From the IMG/VR virus record IMGVR_UViG_2778261216_000003: 36,341 nucleotides of DNA; one strand, 5' to 3'. This DNA comes from a virus (Duplodnaviria > Heunggongvirae > Uroviricota > Caudoviricetes). Both the position numbers and the translations under genes were made by a program. Below, one piece after another: positions 2,955 through 32,988 of the stretch. The first letter of the stretch is position 1, and every line of letters begins with the position of its first letter. The notes under the pieces were generated by a model, which was given only the letters and a program-made list of their open reading frames with translations, did no database searches and was not told the origin of the DNA.

Positions 2955-3595
2955 TTGTCGGTATACCTCTCTCGTTTGCTCAGTTGTTCAGGAATATGGT
3001 GCAGCAGCTCGCCGTCACCACAGTAAATGGCGGCATGATTCGGCACCGATGAACCAAAACAGCACAGCAGCACATCGCCCGGCTGCGCCGCTGACAACGG
3101 CACCTGATACAGCCCTGTAGCCTCCAGATTATCCAGATAGAGATTCTGACCGTGACGCCACCAGTCATCCCCGCGATGAAAATCCGGCATCTCAATCCCC
3201 GCCAGATGGTAAGCATCCCGGAACAGCGTGTAACAGTCCGTCACCCCGTGCTCAAAGCGCCGCCCGGTAAGATGTGGCACACAGCGGAACTTGTGAATCG
3301 CCCCCCGGCAGACCAGCCACCACGGCAAATCACTCTGCACCTGCAGCCGCCGGTCGGCCTCACTCAGCCAGGGCAGACCACCGGGGTGGCTGTGGACCAG
3401 CGCCACAATCTCACCCTGCATCTCTGCCCGCAGCCAGTCCTCCGGCGACATCCGGAAATACGCCTCCGGCTCACCGGAGATATTCACGCAGGGAAAATAT
3501 CTTTCCCCCTCCGGTGTTCTCACCACGAAGCCGCACGACTCCGCTGGCGCACATCGCCGGGCGTGCGCCAGAATCGCTGATTCTGTCTCTGTCAT
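2852..3595 (-). CDS. K: Tail assembly protein K (JAMM/MPN metalloprotease motif plus NlpC/P60-like C-terminal region)
   Basis: 247-aa ORF with HSHPGGLPWLSEAD (H-x-H-x7-S-x2-D JAMM signature) and a Cys/His-containing C-terminal half. The ATG at 3595 abuts the L stop. An alternative start at 3451 would give a 199-aa lambda-length product but would remove the upstream Glu expected for a JAMM site. Confidence 0.8.
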   Translation of the reverse strand: MTETESAILAHARRCAPAESCGFVVRTPEGERYFPCVNISGEPEAYFRMSPEDWLRAEMQGEIVALVHSHPGGLPWLSEADRRLQVQSDLPWWLVCRGAIHKFRCVPHLTGRRFEHGVTDCYTLFRDAYHLAGIEMPDFHRGDDWWRHGQNLYLDNLEATGLYQVPLSAAQPGDVLLCCFGSSVPNHAAIYCGDGELLHHIPEQLSKRERYTDKWQRRTHSLWRHRAWHASAFTGIYNDLAAASTFE

Positions 3596-3600
3596 GGGAT

Positions 3601-4299
3601 TTACTGCGAAAGTTTGTTAATGGAAAGGAAGCCGCCAAAGTTGCCGACGTTATTGCGAAACTTACAGCCGCTCAGGCATTTGCTGCATTTATCCTTCGTG
3701 ATATCGGACGTCGGCTGATCATATTCATCCGCGACCGCCGGACCGTGATAACCGCACTCATCGCCGCGATAGGTCCAGGTGCAGGTGTTGGCCAGCATGA
3801 TACGTCCCGGAAAAACGGCACCGTCCGTTTCCGTCGGCGTGGACAGTACAAAAGAGGCACTCACCGCGCTCAGTTCGCTGCACTGCTCGATGCGCCAGCG
3901 GCTGATCACCTCCTGCTCCGGATCGGCGTCACTGTTTCCGTTGACGAAGTTCACCGCATCCAGAAAACGGGCGTAAACCTTACGCCGGACCACCGTTCCT
4001 CCGACCAGACTCTGCAGATCTTCCGCCATCCCGGTGACCATGCCGTGCAGGTTAGAAACCGTCAGTGTCGGACGGGCAGCACTGCCCTTGCCGTTCAGTT
4101 CAAATCCCGTCCCCTGAATGGGATACGCCTGATACTGTCGCCCCTGCCAGGTGACCGGCTCACCTTTTTCGTTCTGCTCATTACAGAAAAAATAACGTTC
4201 TCCACCGACCTCTGTCAGATCGATTTCCCAGAGCACCACCTGGGCTGACTGAGTGAGGCGTGTCGTCTCATGATGTGTTTCCTGTGGAATATCCTGCAT
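3601..4299 (-). CDS. L: Tail tip assembly protein L
   Basis: 232-aa ORF, same length and position as lambda gpL; Cys cluster CSKCLSGCKF near the C-terminus; sits between M and K. Confidence 0.88.
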   Translation of the reverse strand: MQDIPQETHHETTRLTQSAQVVLWEIDLTEVGGERYFFCNEQNEKGEPVTWQGRQYQAYPIQGTGFELNGKGSAARPTLTVSNLHGMVTGMAEDLQSLVGGTVVRRKVYARFLDAVNFVNGNSDADPEQEVISRWRIEQCSELSAVSASFVLSTPTETDGAVFPGRIMLANTCTWTYRGDECGYHGPAVADEYDQPTSDITKDKCSKCLSGCKFRNNVGNFGGFLSINKLSQ

Positions 4300-4308
4300 C
4301 AGAGACTC

Positions 4309-4638
4309 CTATGCCACGACCTGTTCAAAATCTGCCGTTATGGTTACCCACAACGCCCCCACGCTTGCCGACCATTTACGACAAACCACCCTGATCGGCT
4401 TCCAGTCATAAGGTGGCGTCCACTGAAATGCGCGGACGCCACCGTGCCGTTCCAGAAAGGCTTTTAAAGATGGGTGTTCACATTTACGAACACGTATCGT
4501 CACGCTGTAAGTCGACAACTGGTTATTCAGTCCCGCCGCACGACGCTGTTCATAACCATCGCCCAGCTTCACTGTCACCACTTTCGGCTCTGATACCACA
4601 TTCATATCCGGGCGCACTTTCCAGTGAAACGTCTCCAT
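4309..4638 (-). CDS. M: Minor tail protein M
   Basis: 109-aa ORF (lambda gpM is 109 aa) immediately downstream of the tape measure gene; ATG at 4638. Confidence 0.88.
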   Translation of the reverse strand: METFHWKVRPDMNVVSEPKVVTVKLGDGYEQRRAAGLNNQLSTYSVTIRVRKCEHPSLKAFLERHGGVRAFQWTPPYDWKPIRVVCRKWSASVGALWVTITADFEQVVA

Positions 4639-7600
4639 TACCGATATGCTCCACTTAACCGACCACCATCACGGGCCTGCTGTTGCATAAAGTCCGCTGC
4701 CGCTTTTTTCCCGAGGTCATAAACCACCTTCAGGGCAGCCGGACCTATCTGCCCGTTCGTGCCATCGTTATTGATCTCGATGTTGTACTGCGGGGCAAAC
4801 ATCGCCATACCTGAACCCCCAATATCCGCCACAACCCCCAGCTTACCGTCAGCACCACGACGCAGTGGCAGAATGGCTTCAGGTCCCGCTTCCCCCATCA
4901 CACCCGCGCCTTTTGCAAAAGCAAAAAACGTCGGACGGTTAACCACCGTGCCACTGTAACGACTCAAATCAGCAGACTGATAAATCCCCCCATTGGCATT
5001 CAGGGAAAGGCTGCTGAGATCAAATCCCAGTACACTGCCAATCCCTTTTATCGATTTCATCATGGTTGCCTGCGCCAGGATTTTCGCCATATCTGACAGC
5101 ACAGAAGAGGTGAAGGATTTGAAATTGAGTTTGCCGGTAGTGACAAAAGTTGCCAGGCCATTTCCCATGTTGCTGAAGGCTGACGAGAACACCTGTTCTG
5201 CTGTTCCTGCCGTATTATCTGCATCCACGGTAAAATCCTGAAATGCACGCAGGACTCCGTTTTTCCAGTTACCCTGCACAACTTCAAGCTGTTGCCAGTA
5301 ACGGCGATTCTCATTCAGTTGTCGGTTCAGGCTCTCCGTCAGCGCCTGCTCGGCCTTTCTGTAGTCATCCGTGTTATATGTTCCTTTCTGCTCACTATCC
5401 CGCCTCAACTGCTCCAGCTGTTGCTGGTATTTCTGGCGAAGACTCAGTTGTACCTGATATCGCTGCCGCTGCTGATCACCCATACCCACCGTGGCGATAT
5501 CCAGGTCATGTTGCTGACGCTGAGCGCGCTCTTCTTCAGCCAGTTGACTGGTCAGCTGAATTGTTTTTTTCTTCAGCTCGTTGAGTGCCGTCTGTTTCTG
5601 AAGCTCCTGCTGTTTTACATCCAGCAGCGTCAGTGCCTGAATCAGTTCATCTTTACGGGCCAGCACACTCTTTTCATCTGCCGTCAGTTTTTTCCCGTCC
5701 AGGTCGCTGATGCGCTGCTGCAGAGCCAGAAGCTGTTTATGCGCTTCTGTCATCCTTTCCGTGGCAATGCCTGCTGACTGTCTGGCAGCAGCAATCTGTC
5801 CTTCCACCTGTGCCTGTTGCTGACTGTACTGCAGCAATAACCGGGTGGCCTCATCATTACGGGGGTCGCGTGTTTTTTTCTTACCGGATGCCAGGGCTTT
5901 CTCGTAACGTTCATTTTCACGTTGTATCGCCGCATCCCTGACAGCCTGATCGGCGTACTGCATGGAATTAATACGCGCAATTTCACGCTGATGTCGTGCT
6001 GCTTCCGTTTCATTCATCCGGTTCAGTGCAGCATTTTCAGCATTACGGCGTTTCTGTTGCTCCTGATAATTCCGCTCTGCCTGCTCTTTTGCATCCTGCA
6101 AATCCTTCTGGCGTTTTTTCTCCTGAAGCTCGTTAAGACGCTGCTGATCGTACTCAACCTGAGAAGATGATGCCGTCCAGGGGAGTCTTTTCGCCCGCGA
6201 CACTTTCTCCTGTAAAGCGGAAATCTGTTCATCCAGCGAGTCTTCACGACCAATATTCATGGCCGCATCCCAGAAACGACTCCATAAATCAGACAGATAC
6301 TTCAGCGTACTGCCCAGCGCATTGAGGTTATTATCAATATCCGCAGTACGCCGACCGGTTTCCTCTGCCAGTGCAGACATGGCTATCCGTGCCGCATCAC
6401 TGGACCGCCCCTGTTCCCCAAGGACGCGTATCTGCTCAAGCTGAGTGGCAGTAAGAAAATGCAGCTCATTGTCCAGAGCCTTCGTGGCATTTACAGGATC
6501 ATCCTTCAGCCGCTTAAACTGATTTATGGTATCGCTGACCGACTGGCCAACCGATCGCTCCATCTGTGCGGCAGCTCTCGCCACCATACCGATATCGTTT
6601 CCACGAAATGCACCACTCCCCACCACCTGAGCCAGCGCACCGGCTGCAGCATGTTGCGTAATACCATTCCCGGAAATAGCACGACTGAGCGTCCACAGCT
6701 GCCCGGCAGTGACTCCGGCATAATGCCCCGTCAGCGACAACTGGCGGTTAAATTCTTCCCCCTCCTTCTGACCGTCATACCAGGCTTTACCCAGACCATA
6801 GACAGCCGCGGCAATACCGCCAATAACCCCGCCCAGCATCATGCCTTTCGGTGACATCAGTGTGTCTATCCATCCGGCACGGTTAGCCAGCGTTATTCCG
6901 GACCCCCTCAGCGCCCCTAAATTGCCGCGGGCCAGTTCACCTATCAGAACGCCTATCTCCTGGCGGGCTGCTGCACTTTTCAGACCCAGCGAATGCGTGG
7001 CTTTTCCTGCCTGCTCCATTTTGCGGATATACACTTCTGCAGCACTGCTTACCCCCAGCTGGGCAGCCTTAGCACGAAGCAACTCAGAAGATGAAAGATT
7101 CTGGCGGGTTGCCTGCTCTTTAAGCTGACGGATAAACGCCACTTTCTGTCGGGTAGCCTCTTCCTCAGCCTGTGTAAGAACACGGGTTTTCGCCGTAACC
7201 TCAGAAATCAGCGCCAGATAATCCTGCTGACCAATCCCGCCACTGTTTCTGGCCTGTCGGATCTGCTGCTGAATACGCTGTAATTCCTGCAGCCCCGCAC
7301 TGGCCTGTTTCACACTGTCAATCTGACGATAAAACGCAGCAGCCGCTTTATCCTGAGCCTCCGCCAGAGCCATGGCCTGCGCCTGTTCCTCGCGCATTTT
7401 CTGGCTCAGTGCCTCCATGCGCTGGCGGGTTTTCTCCACCTCGCGGGACATGCGTTCATGAGCCTGTGCGTTCTTCTCCACCGTCTGCGCATGGACGGAT
7501 GCGGCTGTTGCAGCCGAAGAAGCCGCCTGCGTTGTCTGCCGGGCGGCCTGAGTCTGACGCTCCATAAAACGCTGCATACGGGCAGAAGACCGTTCTGCAT

Positions 7601-19368: not shown

Positions 19369-19639
19369 GATGTTACCGTAGTATGTGAGTATCCATCGAA
19401 TAGATACCAAGCAAAAAAGCTCCCGAAGGAGCCTTCATTTTCACTTTTTTAAATCCAACGACAGACGGCTGGCATTTAAGTATTGTGAAATATTATCAAA
19501 TGTAATCATCATTGATTTACAAAAGATACATTTTGCCCCGAAAGGATTCATGTCAGAAACATCAAAAGATGATGTTCTATACTGGGAACCATGACAACAC
19601 GGGCATCTAAAGTGAATATGGTTTGTAATATTGTCTACC

Positions 19640-19852
19640 TCAAAGCGCCACTACATGAACAGCGGCAGGACCTTTAGGTCCGTTCTCAATACCAAATTCA
19701 ACTTCCTGATTCTCAGTTAATGTTTTGAAATCGTTGCTCTGAATTGCTGAGAAATGGACAAACACATCTTTGCTGCCATCTTTCGGCGTGATGAAACCAA
19801 AACCTTTTTCAGGGTTAAACCATTTCACTAAACCAGTCATTTTGTTAGACAT
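19640..19852 (-). CDS. cspI: Cold shock protein, CspI-type
   Basis: 70-aa [41 protein letters not shown]... with RNP1/RNP2 cold-shock-domain motifs (KGFGFI, VFVHF); followed upstream by a long AT-rich leader typical of csp genes. Confidence 0.9.
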
Positions 19853-20215
19853 AATTATTACCTTTTGAAGAAATTAGCCCTTGGGCAGAATGGTCCGAAA
19901 AAAAATATCAGAGAGAAAAACCAACAAGGAAATCTCAAGAGGTACAAATAATAAAATTATAACAATGACTGCTTCAGATAAATTTGTAACAAACCAGAAC
20001 ACCATTAACGCATGATTAACCACCCATAGCAAGGATTACTTTTGTAAAGAAAAACACAGCAATGAAAGAATAGCTTTATTTATTAATAATAACGTGTCAT
20101 TCTGATTAAGACCTTTTATCTTACCCTTAAGATTTCAGGAATTTTGGCTCATGGAAGAGTCCTTTTTATTTAAATTTTACATTCCGCGATGTAAATGTTC
20201 CGATTTAATATTACC

Positions 20216-22243: not shown

Positions 22244-22524
22244 GAGATTGTGGTGCTTTTTGTGGGAGTCATCCACTTACGCACTTTGTTTTGCCATGCC
22301 AGCAGTTAGCTTCTGCTGTAAAACTATTCATGCAGCAAACCTGCACTTCACCACAATGGTTAGCATACTTTTCCTGATTAAGATTTTGCCAAATATGCTA
22401 GCCATTGTTTCATGTATTGGACCTCCTTACTTTTTATTAAAGAGATCCAATATTCACTACTCTGTCCGTATCTCTACTCAGGCATCAGCCTTCTTCGTTA
22501 TCGTATACAGACGAGCGATGAATT

Positions 22525-22740
22525 TTAATCAGTAATGATGACATTTGCTGCTGCAGGACCTTTAGCACCACTCTCTATAGAGAAGGTAACCTTTTGACCT
22601 TCAAATAAGGTTCGATAATTATCATTCTGAATCGCAGAAAAATGCACAAACACATCTTTACTACCATCAACAGGAGAAATAAAGCCGAAACCTTTATCAG
22701 CGTTAAACCATTTTACTAAACCAGTCATTTTATTTGACAT
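22525..22740 (-). CDS. cspB: Cold shock protein CspB
   Basis: 71-aa [70 protein letters not shown]..., matching recalled E. coli CspB. Confidence 0.9.
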
Positions 22741-23040
22741 TCTACATTCCTTAACTTGAGCCTTTCGGCATAAATGGTTTGCATAACAGAAACGACTTCG
22801 TACTTAATTGGAGAGACTCAAAGAAGGAATAAGTGAATAACACCTGAAATGAGAACTGCTTTAGTAAACTACTTCGTATATCGTCTGTTCTTCAAACCGA
22901 CGCAATCATTAACGCATAGTTGAACATATGAAGCAATGTTTATTTTAGACATCCAGCCATCTTCAACCCCATCAAAAAACTATAGCTTTCTTCAGGAACG
23001 TGTGTATAGTGCGCCAAGTTATCAGTATTAAGGAATTTTT

Positions 23041-23253
23041 TTGTCCCGTAAAATGACAGGAATTGTCAAAACCTTTGACGGCAAAAGCGGCAAGGGTCTT
23101 ATCACCCCATCCGATGGTCGTATCGATGTCCAGCTTCATGTTTCAGCGCTCAATCTCCGCGATGCAGAAGAAATTACCACCGGATTACGCGTGGAATTTT
23201 GCCGGATAAATGGTCTGCGTGGCCCTTCAGCTGCCAATGTTTACCTTTCATGA
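23041..23253 (+). CDS. cspF: CspF/CspH-type cold-shock-domain protein
   Basis: 70-aa [40 protein letters not shown]...[21 protein letters not shown]; divergent from cspB as in Qin. Confidence 0.85.
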
Positions 23254-26088: not shown

Positions 26089-26218
26089 CAGAATCCTTCC
26101 GGATAATTAGCTCTCCCCTTTAAGGGACCATCCCTCTTATCCCTGCGCGCTACTTAAGTATTTTTGATTCTATTCCGGCACCGTCCAGATCTTCAAACGC
26201 GTTGAAAATAAAAACAAA

Positions 26219-26236
26219 AACCCGCCGAAGCGGGTT
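26219..26236 (-). terminator. Rho-independent terminator downstream of hokD
   Basis: AACCCGCcgaaGCGGGTT; the minus-strand transcript ends stem + UUUGUUUUUAUUUU. A second perfect 9-bp hairpin GGCGAGGGA-TTTC-TCCCTCGCC at 26276-26297 sits between hok and this terminator (candidate fold-back element of the hok mRNA). Confidence 0.55.
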
Positions 26237-26304
26237 AAGTGCGGGTGCGTTGAGGATGCCTGCCACATCAGAGGTGGCGAGGGATTTCTCCCTCGCCGGG
26301 TCTC

Positions 26305-26460
26305 TTACTCCTCAGGTTCGTAAGCTGTGAAGACAGCGACCTCCGTCTGGCCGGTTCGGATTCGTACCTCGCAGAGGTCTTTCCTCGTTACCAGTGCCGT
26401 CACTATGACGGTTAAACAGATGACGATCAGGGCGATTAACATCGCCTTTTGCTGCTTCAT
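26305..26460 (-). CDS. hokD: Hok-family type I toxin (HokD/RelF-type, 51 aa)
   Basis: From the ATG at 26460: MKQQKAMLIALIVICLTVIVTALVTRKDLCEVRIRTGQTEVAVFTAYEPEE, a single-TM Hok peptide. Confidence 0.88.
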   Translation of the reverse strand: MKQQKAMLIALIVICLTVIVTALVTRKDLCEVRIRTGQTEVAVFTAYEPEE

Positions 26461-26517
26461 AGCCTGCTTCTCCTTGCCTTTCGGCTCGTAAGAGGCTAAC
26501 CTACATGTGTCTAGCAT
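26305..26517 (-). CDS. Mok-like in-frame upstream extension of hok (70 aa)
   Basis: The ORF starting at 26517 (MLDTCRLASYEPKGKEKQA...) continues in frame into hok, as mokC does for hokC in K-12. Confidence 0.45.
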   Translation of the reverse strand: MLDTCRLASYEPKGKEKQAMKQQKAMLIALIVICLTVIVTALVTRKDLCEVRIRTGQTEVAVFTAYEPEE

Positions 26518-27134
26518 GAAATTGGCCTCAGATTAATGTTAAGCGTCTTGCAGGACGCGTAATGTTAACTGGGGCTTTTCTCTATCTGCCTTTGGTGTTC
26601 ATGCCCGAGGCAGATAGCCTCAAGCACCCGCAGCCATTCTACTTAACTACCGTTACCTCGCCAATATGAAATCAGTCAGAAAGGCGATCCATAAGAACAA
26701 TAGCAAGACAATAAATCGCCATTACAGCCGTAATAGCCAGCGCACATTTGAGAACCAGCACCACAACCTCCTGTATTGGACGTAGACCAGTCCTGATGAA
26801 TATGAGGCTGTCTCGTCAGTGATTCAATACAACTATTGGGTATAGTTTCTCTGATTTTTTCTGTGGAAATGGGGCACAACCACTAGTCACCACCAGCACT
26901 TCTTTTAATACGCAAAGTCCGACACAAGCTAACCTTCTAGTCCGCTTTGAGCGAAAAACAGCCATAATTTAGTGCCACGTATATAATGATAGAGCTATTC
27001 AAGCTAGCAATTCACATGTAAAAATTCAGAGGGTAGAAGCACATAGTTATAAATGTTGGCTCCATCGACAAATTGCGGTCTCAAGTACATTTATTAATGT
27101 TGCCCCCGCATTAACAAATCATCAAGGTGACGAC

Positions 27135-28922
27135 ATGGACGATATTAATATCAGCCTCGATGAACTTAACACTATTGATTTATCCCCCTTAATCCAGAGT
27201 AAGCTGCCAGTTACCTGCTTTGATATCACAAAGTATCTTTCTAGCCTAGGTGATGGAAGAGCGGAGATAAGACTGCTAACCCATATTTGCGGTTTTCACT
27301 TTCGTCCCGAAAATCCACAGGTACCATTTGGTCCGTGCTTTCAAAGCAGCCAAGGTAGATCTGCAATTCCGGATGACATTAACGGGTTGTCGCTGGAGGT
27401 ACTTTCTCAATTTTGCCCGACGATAGAGCTACCCGAACTTCAAGCTCGTATTGCTGATACACTTTGGGTTCGTAAAATTGGTGGAATCCGTTTTCCTTTG
27501 CTGGCAGTCCGTGCTTATTATGCGTCCAGTATAGCTATTATGACATCGCAAGGGACGTGGGTTAGTGCTTTAGAACGCCTAGAGCGTGCGCTTAGGCTGT
27601 GTTGTTTTTTTCGAAAGAATACTGATTTCAGGGATGAATTTGATCAGCTTTCGGCACATCTACTAGCAGAGTATGAACGTACCAGAGAACAAGGCGATTC
27701 ACCTTATCCGCTGCGACTCCTGCAACTCGATATCGACTGTAAAGTGAGTGAGCCATCTTTTATTGCCCAGGAACTCCTGTTTCTGACAAAAAACTATCTG
27801 GCTCAAAAATTATTTTCATTTGCCGTCGATGCCTGTAAAACCGCAATCACGATTGCGAATAGGTGCTGTGACAGAGATACACAGTTTGAATTCTGGCGGC
27901 TTCTTGCCGATACACATCTGGAAGAGTCAAAATTCCAAGATGGCGGTATGATTTCGGCAGCCTGCATGCAGAATGCTATTGAAGCACTGGCTAATATTCC
28001 AGGAACCCGAATAGAACGTCTTGCGCTGTATGAAGAAATGCGTGATTACCAAATCGAATCCCGTCACCAGATGTCTATCCTTCAGTCTCCCCCTCAAGAT
28101 ATTAGTGAGATTGTCCATCAAGCCAAGAGTCGGGTAGTCGGAAGAGATATGTTTGATATGGTTTTCAGACTTGCGATGCTGGTCTGTCGGCCAACCAGCA
28201 TTGAGAGACTTAAGGCTCAAGCAATAGAACAAAAGGCCAACAGCATAGCTTGGATGTTTGGATCAACACATATTGATCATGAGGGAATGACACTTGCTCG
28301 CATACCCGCAGGATTGGGGATTGATGATGCAAATGGGGCAGTTATTTGGCCCATAATGATGACGAGAATGCGTATCGACCATGAGTTGGCAGTAGCTGGG
28401 CAAATTATTCCTGCTACAGATGAGATCACAATGAAATATCCAATCTCGGAGGCGTTTTTTCGCGATATGTTCATCAATCATCCCTTCATCCCGTTTGGGC
28501 ATGAAGAGTTTTTCATCAAGGGTATGGTTTGCGGTTTCAATGGAGATTTTATGACGGCATGCCACGTGTTGATTCCCCAGATCGAAAATAGTCTGAGATA
28601 TGTGGCTAAAATTAAAGGTGAGGAACCATCGCAGCTTCACGGGGACGGTTCGCAAGAGCGAAATGGACTCAAGGGATTACTAGATAATCCACTGATTATT
28701 GAAGCTTTCGGCGTAGACATAATTGGCAATCTTCAGGCCTTACTGGTAGATAAAATCTATGGTGATTTACGAAATCAACTAGCTCACGGATATGTGCCTG
28801 CCGGTTACTACAATCAACCTCCCTGCATTTTTGCATGGTGGCTTGTATTGCACATTCTAATGAACCCTACGGCGAGATACTGGCAAGCCACTTATGGCCA
28901 AGAGAGTGAGGCTCAGACTTAA
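27135..28922 (+). CDS. Large hypothetical protein (595 aa) with C-terminal HEPN-like R-x4-H-G motif; candidate anti-phage defense / abortive-infection moron
   Basis: Long uninterrupted ORF with AAGGTGA Shine-Dalgarno; opposite strand to all flanking prophage genes; visibly more AT-rich than neighbours; C-terminus contains DKIYGDLRNQLAHGYV (R546-x4-H551-G); no Walker A motif; a palindrome TTAATG-n9-CATTAA lies just upstream. Confidence 0.75.
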   Translation: MDDINISLDELNTIDLSPLIQSKLPVTCFDITKYLSSLGDGRAEIRLLTHICGFHFRPENPQVPFGPCFQSSQGRSAIPDDINGLSLEVLSQFCPTIELPELQARIADTLWVRKIGGIRFPLLAVRAYYASSIAIMTSQGTWVSALERLERALRLCCFFRKNTDFRDEFDQLSAHLLAEYERTREQGDSPYPLRLLQLDIDCKVSEPSFIAQELLFLTKNYLAQKLFSFAVDACKTAITIANRCCDRDTQFEFWRLLADTHLEESKFQDGGMISAACMQNAIEALANIPGTRIERLALYEEMRDYQIESRHQMSILQSPPQDISEIVHQAKSRVVGRDMFDMVFRLAMLVCRPTSIERLKAQAIEQKANSIAWMFGSTHIDHEGMTLARIPAGLGIDDANGAVIWPIMMTRMRIDHELAVAGQIIPATDEITMKYPISEAFFRDMFINHPFIPFGHEEFFIKGMVCGFNGDFMTACHVLIPQIENSLRYVAKIKGEEPSQLHGDGSQERNGLKGLLDNPLIIEAFGVDIIGNLQALLVDKIYGDLRNQLAHGYVPAGYYNQPPCIFAWWLVLHILMNPTARYWQATYGQESEAQT

Positions 28923-29140
28923 AGTGAATAAGTTTACGAAGTTGGCACTTCCGGATGCATGTCCATATGAGTTGAGGCGATTTGGTTAATAAGGTTGAGT
29001 GCTGCTGAAATTATTCGATGTCCGCTTTTGGCACAAAGCGGACAACCACGCCAGATCTACCCTGTGCCATGAAAAATGAGAATGTCAATTCACTCCTGAA
29101 CTAATGCTTTTTAATCTAGTAACGTCTAAAATACCTAACA

Positions 29141-29542
29141 TTATCCCTGATAAAATGCCAGTATGCGCTGCATAACTTCACTCATCCGGCACTCGCGACA
29201 GATTATGTTTAGGCGACTGTCGTAGCGACGTATTTCTCCATCAGGTAACGACCAGATAAGGTCCGGATCAACCACAGCTGTTTTCTTCACCTTTGCCCTC
29301 GAGAGTTTTTTGCGGGCGTTTTGCCAGTCCTTACGCGCCTGTTCAGACGGGAATAACCCGTAGCCGGAGTTGTATACATCGCCACTGGCTACCAGCTCTC
29401 TGGCAAGAACGCTCATCAGATATCTAGTCGCACCTGTTTTAGCTTCCAGTTGCCGTAACGTCTCACGACCGCTCTGGCGCACGAGTTCCACCACCTGCCC
29501 TTTAATTTTTTCCCGCTCTTCTTGTGTAAAAACTTTTGCCAC
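29141..29542 (-). CDS. Hypothetical protein with putative HTH/winged-helix region (133 aa)
   Basis: ORF immediately downstream of the O-like replication gene; the segment ETLRQLEAKTGATRYLMSVLAREL looks HTH-like; no family recognised. Confidence 0.55.
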   Translation of the reverse strand: MAKVFTQEEREKIKGQVVELVRQSGRETLRQLEAKTGATRYLMSVLARELVASGDVYNSGYGLFPSEQARKDWQNARKKLSRAKVKKTAVVDPDLIWSLPDGEIRRYDSRLNIICRECRMSEVMQRILAFYQG

Positions 29543-29582
29543 AAGTCCCCCTTAAAATTACCTCATGACCTGAAATCAAAAC

Positions 29583-30548
29583 TTATCCTCTGAAACCAGG
29601 CGGAATTTCTGTATCCGGTTCAGAAATATGATTAACACAACGCTGTACAGGTGAACGCCCCAGGCGGATGACCAGTTCGTCCCATTTTTCGCGGAGCTTT
29701 GACGGGCTCATGATGTTTTTTACCCAGAATGGATCCCGCTGTACCCGACCAAACATTTCACAAATTTGTCTGTGGCTTCTGCCATCCAGCATCCGCATTG
29801 TGCGCACATCATTGGCCCAGACAGTCCAGTTAGGCTCTTTTGGTCGCATGATCTCGCCATCATCACTGGCGGCCTGTTCGTAGAGACCCACGATCCGCCC
29901 CCATATCCACTGCGCACACGCCAGATCCTCCTGGCTACCCCACTGGCGTTTTTTCGCACTAAACACAACTGCGCCAGGGTGCCGGATTAAAAAATCCTGT
30001 TCAGCCGTCTGCGGGTCCGGTTGCGAAGCTTCCGGACGAAAAGTGTTTTTATTCTCTGTAGTAATCTCTGTTGTATTCTCTGTAGGATCATCGGGCCATT
30101 TTGACCCGATGACATTGGGTCGTTTTGAACCAATGGAGCGTTTCATTTTGACCTCTTCCATCGTGTCATTTTGACCTGATGGAGCGGCGCATTTTGAACC
30201 GATGGATTCGCTCAATTTGCCATCATCTAAAAGCTCGCTTCCATAGTTAATCGTGTAGAAATTGGTCATATCGCGCTTTGATTTATTGAGCTTTTCACAA
30301 CGCAAAAGCCCCAGCGTTTTCAGACTTGCAAACGCGCGCTTTAACGTTGACTCTGACCAGAATGGGAACTGTTCCAGCCATTGTTCCGTTGTGTTGTAAA
30401 TCCAGCGAACACCATCACATTCCATGCCGGAATTGGTATCTCTCAACCAGTAATGCAACTGCTGCAACACAATGGCTTCATTTAAGCCAATCTTCATCGC
30501 AAGCTGTGTGTTTATAACCAGTGGGCGTTCAGCAAAAAGAAGGCTCAT
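29583..30548 (-). CDS. Replication initiator (lambda O-like replisome organizer) containing the origin iterons
   Basis: N-terminal HTH-type region (MSLLFAERPLVINTQLAMKIGLNEAIVLQQLHYWL); the coding sequence contains five direct repeats with 23-bp spacing that translate to the repeated SIGSK motif, as lambda O contains ori-lambda. Start is taken at the ATG at 30548 (the track ORF starts at 30602). Confidence 0.75.
   Translation of the reverse strand: MSLLFAERPLVINTQLAMKIGLNEAIVLQQLHYWLRDTNSGMECDGVRWIYNTTEQWLEQFPFWSESTLKRAFASLKTLGLLRCEKLNKSKRDMTNFYTINYGSELLDDGKLSESIGSKCAAPSGQNDTMEEVKMKRSIGSKRPNVIGSKWPDDPTENTTEITTENKNTFRPEASQPDPQTAEQDFLIRHPGAVVFSAKKRQWGSQEDLACAQWIWGRIVGLYEQAASDDGEIMRPKEPNWTVWANDVRTMRMLDGRSHRQICEMFGRVQRDPFWVKNIMSPSKLREKWDELVIRLGRSPVQRCVNHISEPDTEIPPGFRG
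30098..30212. repeat. Origin of replication iterons: five copies of C(A/G)TTTTGA(A)CC at 23-bp period, flanked by an AT-rich segment with TTCTCTGTAG x2 (about 30040-30090)
   Basis: Repeat cores start at about 30098, 30121, 30144, 30167 and 30190. The first two units are internally palindromic (TCATCGGG...CCCGATGA; CATTGG...CCAATG). Confidence 0.6.
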
Positions 30549-31050
30549 AATTCCATCCAGCTTTTTGTTGGTATTGCTGTCGATACGCAAGTTTGAAAGC
30601 AATTGCTTTTTCTATAAGTTCGTCAGTTTCACGATCCACTACGGCAGGATCAGCAAAAAGCAGTCCGGACTCCACCACATCGCCATATTCTTTGTTTAAC
30701 CCGGCGATCATGTACGTGATGCTTTTTCCGTCACTAATTTCACGATACAACCTGAAATCATTAATCCGGATAGCCTCCATAATTGCAGGCACTAGCGCCG
30801 TGAACTTTTCACGCTTATCCCTGGTGTCGATAGCCTTCCAGCGTTCGAATATCTTCACTCGATTAACGCCAAGCGCTCGCTGATCAACCGCGCCACCTTC
30901 ATCTGTGACACGCTGAACATCGATGTTCGGGCGCTCTTTCAAAGCCCAGAATGCTTCAGTGATTAATATCGTCGCCTGCTCCTGTGTCATTCCTGGTCGA
31001 CATATCCAGGCATCCAGAGCCTCACGAGCCTGTTCAGGAGTGATTTTCAT
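30529..31050 (-). CDS. Hypothetical early-operon protein (173 aa), between Cro-like DicC and the replication initiator
   Basis: ORF with start overlapping the dicC-like stop and end overlapping the O-like start; occupies the cII/YdaT-like position; no family recognised. Confidence 0.55.
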   Translation of the reverse strand: MKITPEQAREALDAWICRPGMTQEQATILITEAFWALKERPNIDVQRVTDEGGAVDQRALGVNRVKIFERWKAIDTRDKREKFTALVPAIMEAIRINDFRLYREISDGKSITYMIAGLNKEYGDVVESGLLFADPAVVDRETDELIEKAIAFKLAYRQQYQQKAGWNYEPSFC

Positions 31051-32930: not shown

Positions 32931-32988
32931 TTTCTGGTGACGTTTGGCGGTATCAGTTTTACTCCGTGACTGCTCTGCCGCCGTTTTT
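32931..32988 (+). ncRNA. dicF: DicF small RNA (ftsZ-targeting antisense sRNA)
   Basis: Sequence TTTCTGGTGACGTTTGGCGGTATCAGTTTTACTCCGTGACTGCTCTGCCGCCGTTTTT matches recalled DicF almost base for base, including the 3' GGCGG...CCGCC stem and U-tract; lies immediately upstream of dicB. Confidence 0.75.

Follow-up and report, generated by a model that had tools for sequence, protein, structure and literature searches.

Our aim was to understand whether a hokD gene, carried by a phage, belongs to an autonomous toxin-antitoxin module or is what remains of an operon. The question arises because, in E. coli K-12, the same Hok open reading frame is the third gene of relB-relE-hokD (relBEF). The DNA analysed, hereafter the window, is a stretch of 36,341 nucleotides from a Caudoviricetes virus (IMG/VR record IMGVR_UViG_2778261216_000003). 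It matches a near-complete, Qin-like lambdoid prophage adjoining rspB. A search with 551 bases from around the locus gave 100% identity to E. coli 118UI. Within the prophage, the hok locus has the replication genes on one side and the Q/lysis genes on the other. A first-pass annotation, made from the DNA letters alone, suggested that the locus could be an autonomous module of the hok/sok type, and not an operon remnant. Our analysis supports this proposal. Judging by sequence and by family models, the segment 26210-26664, on the minus strand, is very probably a type I toxin-antitoxin module, hok/mok/sok, that is structurally complete and belongs to the hokD/hokW subgroup. The evidence, set out below, is a full leader, a predicted promoter of its own, a tac/fbi fold, and antisense promoter hexamers identical to those of sokW. 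The features of the locus, and some of its surroundings, are listed in Table 1.

Table 1. Features of the hokD locus and neighbouring prophage elements, in window coordinates.
Feature	Position	Strand	Basis or remark
cspA-type thermoregulator 5' UTRs of prophage cspB and cspI	22509-22901; 19613-19998	-	RF01766, 158.8 and 112.8 bits
Predicted full-length hok mRNA, about 420 nt	26210-26629	-	5' end placed by promoter and Rfam position 1; 3' end placed by terminator
Intrinsic terminator of hok mRNA	26219-26236	-	Terminator scan; identical in K-12
fbi (fold-back inhibition), CCUCAACGCACCC	26243-26255	-	12 bp with tac, plus 1-nt bulge
Perfect 9-bp 3'-UTR hairpin	26276-26297	-	Sequence and folds
hok (hokD) open reading frame, 51 aa and stop	26305-26460	-	Pfam PF01848; RefSeq accession
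mok open reading frame, 70 aa, in frame with hok (N-terminally extended Hok)	26305-26517	-	ATG at 26517
hok Shine-Dalgarno, AAGGAG	26470-26475	-	Sequence reading; last element retained by K-12
K-12 Qin homology breakpoint	26474/26475	.	Alignment; relE to the right in K-12; 14 nt upstream of hok AUG
Putative sok promoter, TTGCCT (26474-26479), 17-nt spacer, TAACCT (26497-26502)	26474-26502	+	Sequence; homology to sokW
dcb, GCCUC	26492-26496	-	Pairs with mok Shine-Dalgarno region GAGGC in truncated mRNA, giving Sok-target hairpin
Predicted Sok RNA, about 75 nt: 5' tail, long hairpin, then UUUUCUCU	26509-26583	+	Both ends predicted
mok Shine-Dalgarno, GAGG, 8 nt 5' of mok AUG	26526-26529	-	Sequence reading; sequestered in full-length fold
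ucb (anti-Shine-Dalgarno box), AAGCCCC	26571-26577	-	Folds
5' leader hairpin	26582-26617	-	RF01794 consensus structure; RNAalifold consensus of 24 relatives, 2 compensatory pairs
tac (translational activator), GGGUGCUUGAGG	26618-26629	-	Partner of fbi in full-length fold and of ucb after 3' removal
hok/mok promoter, TTGGCG-17-TAGAAT, sigma-70-like	26636-26664	-	Promoter scan; 9/12 consensus positions
DUF7380/DUF4209 open reading frame, 595 aa, divergent from hok	27135-28922	+	PADLOC PDC-S39 match, E = 8e-103
DicF antisense sRNA gene, upstream of dicB and ydfD as in K-12 Qin	32932-32983	+	Full-length RF00039 match, 72.5 bits

The Hok open reading frame noted in the first pass is present. In a Pfam scan, the enclosing 70-residue Mok-Hok frame matched the Hok/Gef family (PF01848) with 81.6 bits, against a cut-off of 22. 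The 51-residue Hok sequence, MKQQKAMLIALIVICLTVIVTALVTRKDLCEVRIRTGQTEVAVFTAYEPEE, has the RefSeq accession WP_000813254.1 (HokD) in K-12 DH1, and also in strain 118UI, where the locus is 100% identical. Scores for the NCBIfam Hok models were under their curated cut-offs (48.5 compared to 73), and RefSeq still names the identical protein HokD. Hence, despite these scores, the Pfam match and the shared accession settle the family. In PADLOC, no model matched Hok. The Mok-like extension is also real, and an in-frame Mok is ordinary. Among 24 relatives, the mok AUG is kept in 23, and mok is in frame with hok in 16. Separately, we observed a G directly after the Hok Tyr47 codon, UAC (26319-26322, minus strand), which gives the UACG motif for A-to-I editing by TadA. 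According to a preprint, hokD mRNA is edited at Tyr47, and the change from tyrosine to cysteine is needed for a disulfide (10.1101/2025.08.07.668861). The same preprint counts HokD as one of the homologs for which toxicity had been shown before, and its assays included HokD as a control. The protein is probably toxic in the present context also.

On sequence grounds, the hok locus appears to have its own promoter. The -10 element ends 7 nt before position 26629, which is both position 1 of the Rfam model and the first base of tac. Transcription would, in this case, start on tac base 1. The leader itself was recognised in a scan of all Rfam families, and again when the whole window was used. 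In each instance, RF01794 ("sok") matched 26455-26629, on the minus strand, over model positions 1-157 of 157. The score was 116 bits, compared to a gathering score of 59 (E = 3e-27). The alignment finishes with the hok start codon; what the model represents, therefore, is the leader of the sense-strand hok mRNA and not the antisense RNA. The leader is complete, with tac, the 5' hairpin, ucb, the mok Shine-Dalgarno and AUG, dcb, and the hok Shine-Dalgarno. Relative to the Rfam consensus, it has an 18-nt insertion that lengthens the Sok hairpin. A long dyad in the leader, reported in the first pass, is the conserved 5' hairpin; its arms are CTATCTGCC (26582-26590) and GGCAGATAG (26609-26617). 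The two 3' elements were also placed correctly from the outset. The 9-bp hairpin, GGCGAGGGA-TTTC-TCCCTCGCC, is perfect, and the terminator has a 7-bp stem, followed by TTTGTTTTTA. By analogy with the R1 model (PMC9841398), the 9-bp hairpin may block 3' exonucleases, and so form the end of the processed, active mRNA.

Some weaker signals nearby were set aside. In the hok 3' UTR (26215-26301, minus strand), an isrK-like match (26215-26296; 25.7 bits compared to a cut-off of 50, E = 0.006) and an rsmX-like match were both under threshold, and probably reflect a generic hairpin-plus-terminator shape. A plus-strand RF01794 match (26571-26713, 18 bits) is noise. Just upstream of the hok promoter is an unannotated open reading frame with a GTG start (26672-26764, minus strand). 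The 30 residues encoded, MVLVLKCALAITAVMAIYCLAIVLMDRLSD, are strongly hydrophobic, and a terminator-like hairpin (26737-26718) is found within the frame. This open reading frame may be due to chance.

The first-pass annotation had suggested that the hok mRNA be folded, to look for tac/fbi pairing. We did this with the 418 nt between 26629 and 26212. The minimum free energy structure, at -175.1 kcal/mol, has its 5' and 3' ends paired. Nucleotides 1-12 (26629-26618) pair with 26255-26243, forming 12 base pairs with a one-base bulge. In the same fold, the mok Shine-Dalgarno (26529-26526) is paired with ucb (26577-26571), such that C56, C57 and C59 of ucb contact G104, G103 and G101 respectively. 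The mok AUG region is paired with 3'-UTR sequence beside fbi. When the mRNA was shortened in silico, to either 26258 or 26262, tac switched to ucb. A local hairpin, formed by GAGGC and GCCUC (Shine-Dalgarno and dcb) and bearing the mok start, was then apparent. This fold of the truncated mRNA is also the RNAalifold consensus. Both states match those described for R1 hok mRNA (PMC9841398). The energy of the tac-fbi duplex, -21.5 kcal/mol, was equalled in 1 of 200 shuffled 3' UTRs. Together with the Rfam E-value, this places the locus as a whole far above chance.

Conservation was assessed using 53 loci encoding Hok relatives, one genome per species, with leaders located by Rfam. For 35 of these, we took the first 14 nt of the leader and sought their best pairing in the 160 nt that follow the stop codon. 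In 33 of the 35, spanning Escherichia, Kluyvera, Photorhabdus, Pantoea and others, the best duplex was tac/fbi, located 45 to 56 nt past the stop. Two compensatory changes were detected. The U4:A pair is replaced by C:G in Photorhabdus and Pantoea, and G11:C is replaced by A:U in Kluyvera and Photorhabdus. Within the leader, covariation is weak (2 compensatory pairs among 22, by RNAalifold with 24 sequences) because the leader is nearly invariant. For instance, the tac motif GGG.GCUU is the same throughout the 24-sequence alignment, except for position 4, which is U or C. Similarly, the GAGGC/GCCUC helix shows no variation in 22 to 24 of the 24 relatives, and the tac/ucb, 5'-hairpin and Shine-Dalgarno/dcb helices are retained in essentially all. 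The tac/fbi test is more informative than leader covariation. Some Enterobacteriaceae and Photorhabdus contigs in the comparison set have two hok leaders, separated by approximately 560 to 630 nt (L030 71-240 and 633-803; L038 656-803 and 1285-1433; L047 256-403). This suggests tandem hok/sok modules.

A candidate cis-encoded Sok RNA, for which a putative promoter and a terminator hairpin can be recognised, lies across the mok start. Sequence, folding and analogy with sokW are consistent with this assignment. The promoter-like element reported in the first pass, TTGCCT-17-TAACCT, does exist. It had been placed at 26488-26516, and is in fact 14 nt to the left (Table 1). The element agrees with the consensus at 7 of 12 positions, and was missed by a generic promoter scan. 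Taken alone, it is no better than chance. We have kept it, despite the poor consensus, because it is homologous to the sokW promoter. Initiation about 7 nt past TAACCT (close to 26509) would generate an RNA complementary to the mok AUG, the mok Shine-Dalgarno and ucb. The plus strand between 26507 and 26590, with its long hairpin ahead of a U-run, folds at -30.6 kcal/mol (z = -4.3), and none of 200 shuffled sequences was as stable.

The closest point of reference is hokW-sokW, of the Sakai prophage Sp5, for which type I toxin-antitoxin activity is established experimentally (Takada et al. 2021, PMC8621323). Briefly, HokW is toxic, and protection is given by sokW when this is expressed from its own promoter. 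Mutation of the sokW promoter unleashes the toxicity, and growth is partly recovered by providing sokW in trans. The activity of the system depends on RNase III and Hfq. The 'pro-less' mutation, made with primers YO-421 and YO-422, changes TAACCTA to GAGCCGG, and sokW RNA was detected by northern blot (all PMC8621323). The probe used is equivalent to window positions 26509-26538. Both loci are found in lambdoid prophages, and have the same architecture, including an in-frame 70-residue Mok. Using the copy in Stx2-converting phage I, we found 92.4% identity from fbi to the promoter. The sok -35 and -10 hexamers, their spacing, and Hok residues 1-44 are identical. The two loci differ by 8 substitutions across the promoter and Sok interval (26474-26583), and at the Hok C-terminus, which is TAYEPEE in the window and VDYESEK in HokW. 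Homology stops after fbi, so that the terminator regions are unrelated. The host phages also differ, being Qin-like at rspB for the window and an Stx2 phage for hokW-sokW.

Loci of the hokC/mokC/sokC type, copies of which are inactivated by IS elements in K-12, belong to the same leader family, and have an in-frame Mok starting MLNTCR (locus L017 of the comparison set). Their leader is shorter, and is without the 18-nt hairpin insert of the window, and Hok is about 82% identical. The hok/sok (parB) system of R1, unlike the window locus, is plasmid-borne. Furthermore, R1 mok is in the +1 frame, compared to in frame here, and R1 Sok is about 64 nt long. The set of elements (tac, fbi, ucb, dcb, mok and Sok) is the same in R1, and the same switch, between folds of the full-length and of the truncated mRNA, is predicted (PMC9841398). 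The two systems also share an Rfam leader family and a Pfam toxin family. HokW is reported to be 44% identical to R1 Hok (PMC8621323).

From homology with hok/sok of plasmid R1 and hokW-sokW of Sp5, we propose that the module would work as follows. A weak constitutive promoter would produce a stable hok mRNA of about 420 nt. With tac locked to the 3' fbi, and the mok Shine-Dalgarno covered by ucb, this mRNA would be closed to both ribosomes and Sok. Slow 3' trimming, toward the 9-bp hairpin, would strip fbi. Subsequently, tac would re-pair with ucb, freeing the mok Shine-Dalgarno and forming the Sok-target hairpin. While present, the short-lived Sok would pair over the mok start region, and the duplex would be destroyed, presumably by RNase III cleavage. 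Were Sok to drop, possibly upon loss of the element or prophage induction, mok would be translated, Hok made, and the inner membrane damaged.

How, then, does the window relate to K-12? In line with the first-pass annotation, no relB or relE open reading frame is present between 26461 and 27130, and the next gene is divergent (Table 1). The relBEF arrangement is not found at the window locus. The K-12 hokD gene (relF) shares its prophage lineage, and the neighbours rem, ydfU and ydfT, with the window. Between window positions 23150 and 26474, identity to K-12 DH1 is 99.4%, and this interval includes the Hok open reading frame, the hok Shine-Dalgarno, the 3' hairpin, fbi and the terminator. Past the breakpoint, the two differ. 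K-12 hokD has no hok promoter, tac, ucb, mok, or sok promoter and RNA. Instead, it has relE and relB, and is transcribed from the relBE promoter, unlike hok in the window. The location of the breakpoint, so close to the hok AUG, explains why K-12 hokD is without antisense control. The DNA particular to K-12 DH1 is 2.07 kb in length (positions 3326-5393 of comparison locus L002), and contains relE, relB, ydfV, flxA and ydfW. Homology resumes at window position 30771. This is inside a YdaT-family gene, the K-12 counterpart of which is the truncated pseudogene ydfX. Replaced in K-12 are 4.3 kb of the window (26475-30770), comprising the hok leader and sok, the PDC-S39-like gene, a DUF977 gene, a replication-region gene, and part of the YdaT-family gene. 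Hence, both ends of the K-12 segment cut units that are intact in the window, and K-12 is the derived state. The alignment indicates that the window is the unrearranged form, and K-12 a derived, truncated one. K-12 hokD was reportedly described as truncated by Pedersen and Gerdes in 1999.

An opposite history would have the locus as a remnant of relB-relE-hokD, produced by a recent relBE deletion, with a leader that is incidental. The identity of the Hok open reading frame to the third gene of relBEF fits with such a deletion, which we nevertheless consider extremely improbable. The hok-leader covariance model is matched over its whole length by the 170 nt upstream, and the leader is conserved, together with its structure, across genera. 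The first-pass annotation had named a scar from the deletion of relBE, and a leader lacking conserved structure, as the contrary outcome; the opposite is seen, since it is the K-12 segment that truncates the hok leader and the YdaT-family gene, both whole here. Frequencies point the same way. With window positions 26440-26665 as the query, the hok leader was found, at coverage of at least 80%, in 4287 of 5426 complete E. coli genomes, compared to 1173 for the K-12 relE-hokD junction at the same coverage. Matches of any kind to the leader occur at a median of 2 places per genome, and at up to 10. Sequenced phages carry the same module, variously annotated "MokW protein", "HokD toxin", "host killer protein" or "mok/hok". 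A different objection would be that the plus-strand promoter is dead. In this scenario no Sok would be made, and Hok would be restrained by fold-back alone, or else the copy would be drifting to inactivation. This is slightly more plausible than a deletion remnant, and still very unlikely. The poor consensus match, overlooked by the promoter scan, and a better -35 element (TTGACC) in other relatives, are both consistent with a dead promoter. However, the same hexamers, with the same 17-nt spacing, are found in sokW, where the RNA has been seen by northern blot and mutation of the -10 element abolishes protection (PMC8621323). In addition, Hok without Sok should be counter-selected, yet the majority of the searched E. 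coli genomes contain the leader.

If the module is intact, its physiological role could be either stabilisation of the element or, as for hokW-sokW, assistance to lysis once the prophage is induced. In the latter case, the SOS response would cause Sok to fall, and Hok would aid lysis and phage release, rather than mediating post-segregational killing. Note that the molecular mechanism would be the same, and that only the physiological role differs from our preferred explanation. We consider a part in the lytic programme a serious possibility, if somewhat short of an even chance. The module is 92% identical to hokW-sokW, for which mitomycin C decreased sokW RNA and increased HokW, in a way that depended on RecA, and deletion halved the phage yield (PMC8621323). 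The position of the locus in a near-complete prophage, with the replication and Q/lysis genes on either side, is consistent with this, as is the failure of chromosomal hok loci in tests of post-segregational killing (10.1101/2025.08.07.668861). Conversely, the sequence holds nothing that separates a lytic from a stabilising role, the immunity region and lysis genes differ between this prophage and Sp5, and the reported hokW effect is modest, at about two-fold. The chromosomal loci at issue, hokA, hokB and hokC, were reported to be without post-segregational killing (cited in 10.1101/2025.08.07.668861). For this reason, the intact-looking copy in the window may also be physiologically quiet.

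The complete hok/mok/sok module faces a gene whose product matches PDC-S39, a candidate anti-phage defence family. No NCBIfam model was found for this 595-residue DUF7380/DUF4209 protein. The slot occupied by the gene is variable. In phage mEp460_ev081, it contains a different gene of 1350 nt and, in K-12, relBE-ydfV-flxA. A speculative proposal is that hokD/sok acts as both marker and stabiliser of a variable cargo slot, just upstream of its promoter, in Qin-like and related lambdoid prophages. The module would then be an addiction, or lysis-timing, element guarding defence cargo, and K-12 relBEF would be one outcome of cargo exchange. We regard this as unlikely.

Among the papers searched, none named both "hokD" and "sokD". 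The hok/sok module described here is of a known and very common family, from which nothing in it deviates, and the locus has little significance beyond its correct annotation. In RefSeq, the 51-residue hokD coding sequence alone is annotated at the locus; mok, the Sok RNA and the mRNA elements are absent. Hence, a reader with K-12 in mind could mistake the locus for a fragment of relBEF. It is the textbook relBE-hokD arrangement of K-12 that is the rearranged, minority state (1173 compared to 4287 of 5426 genomes).
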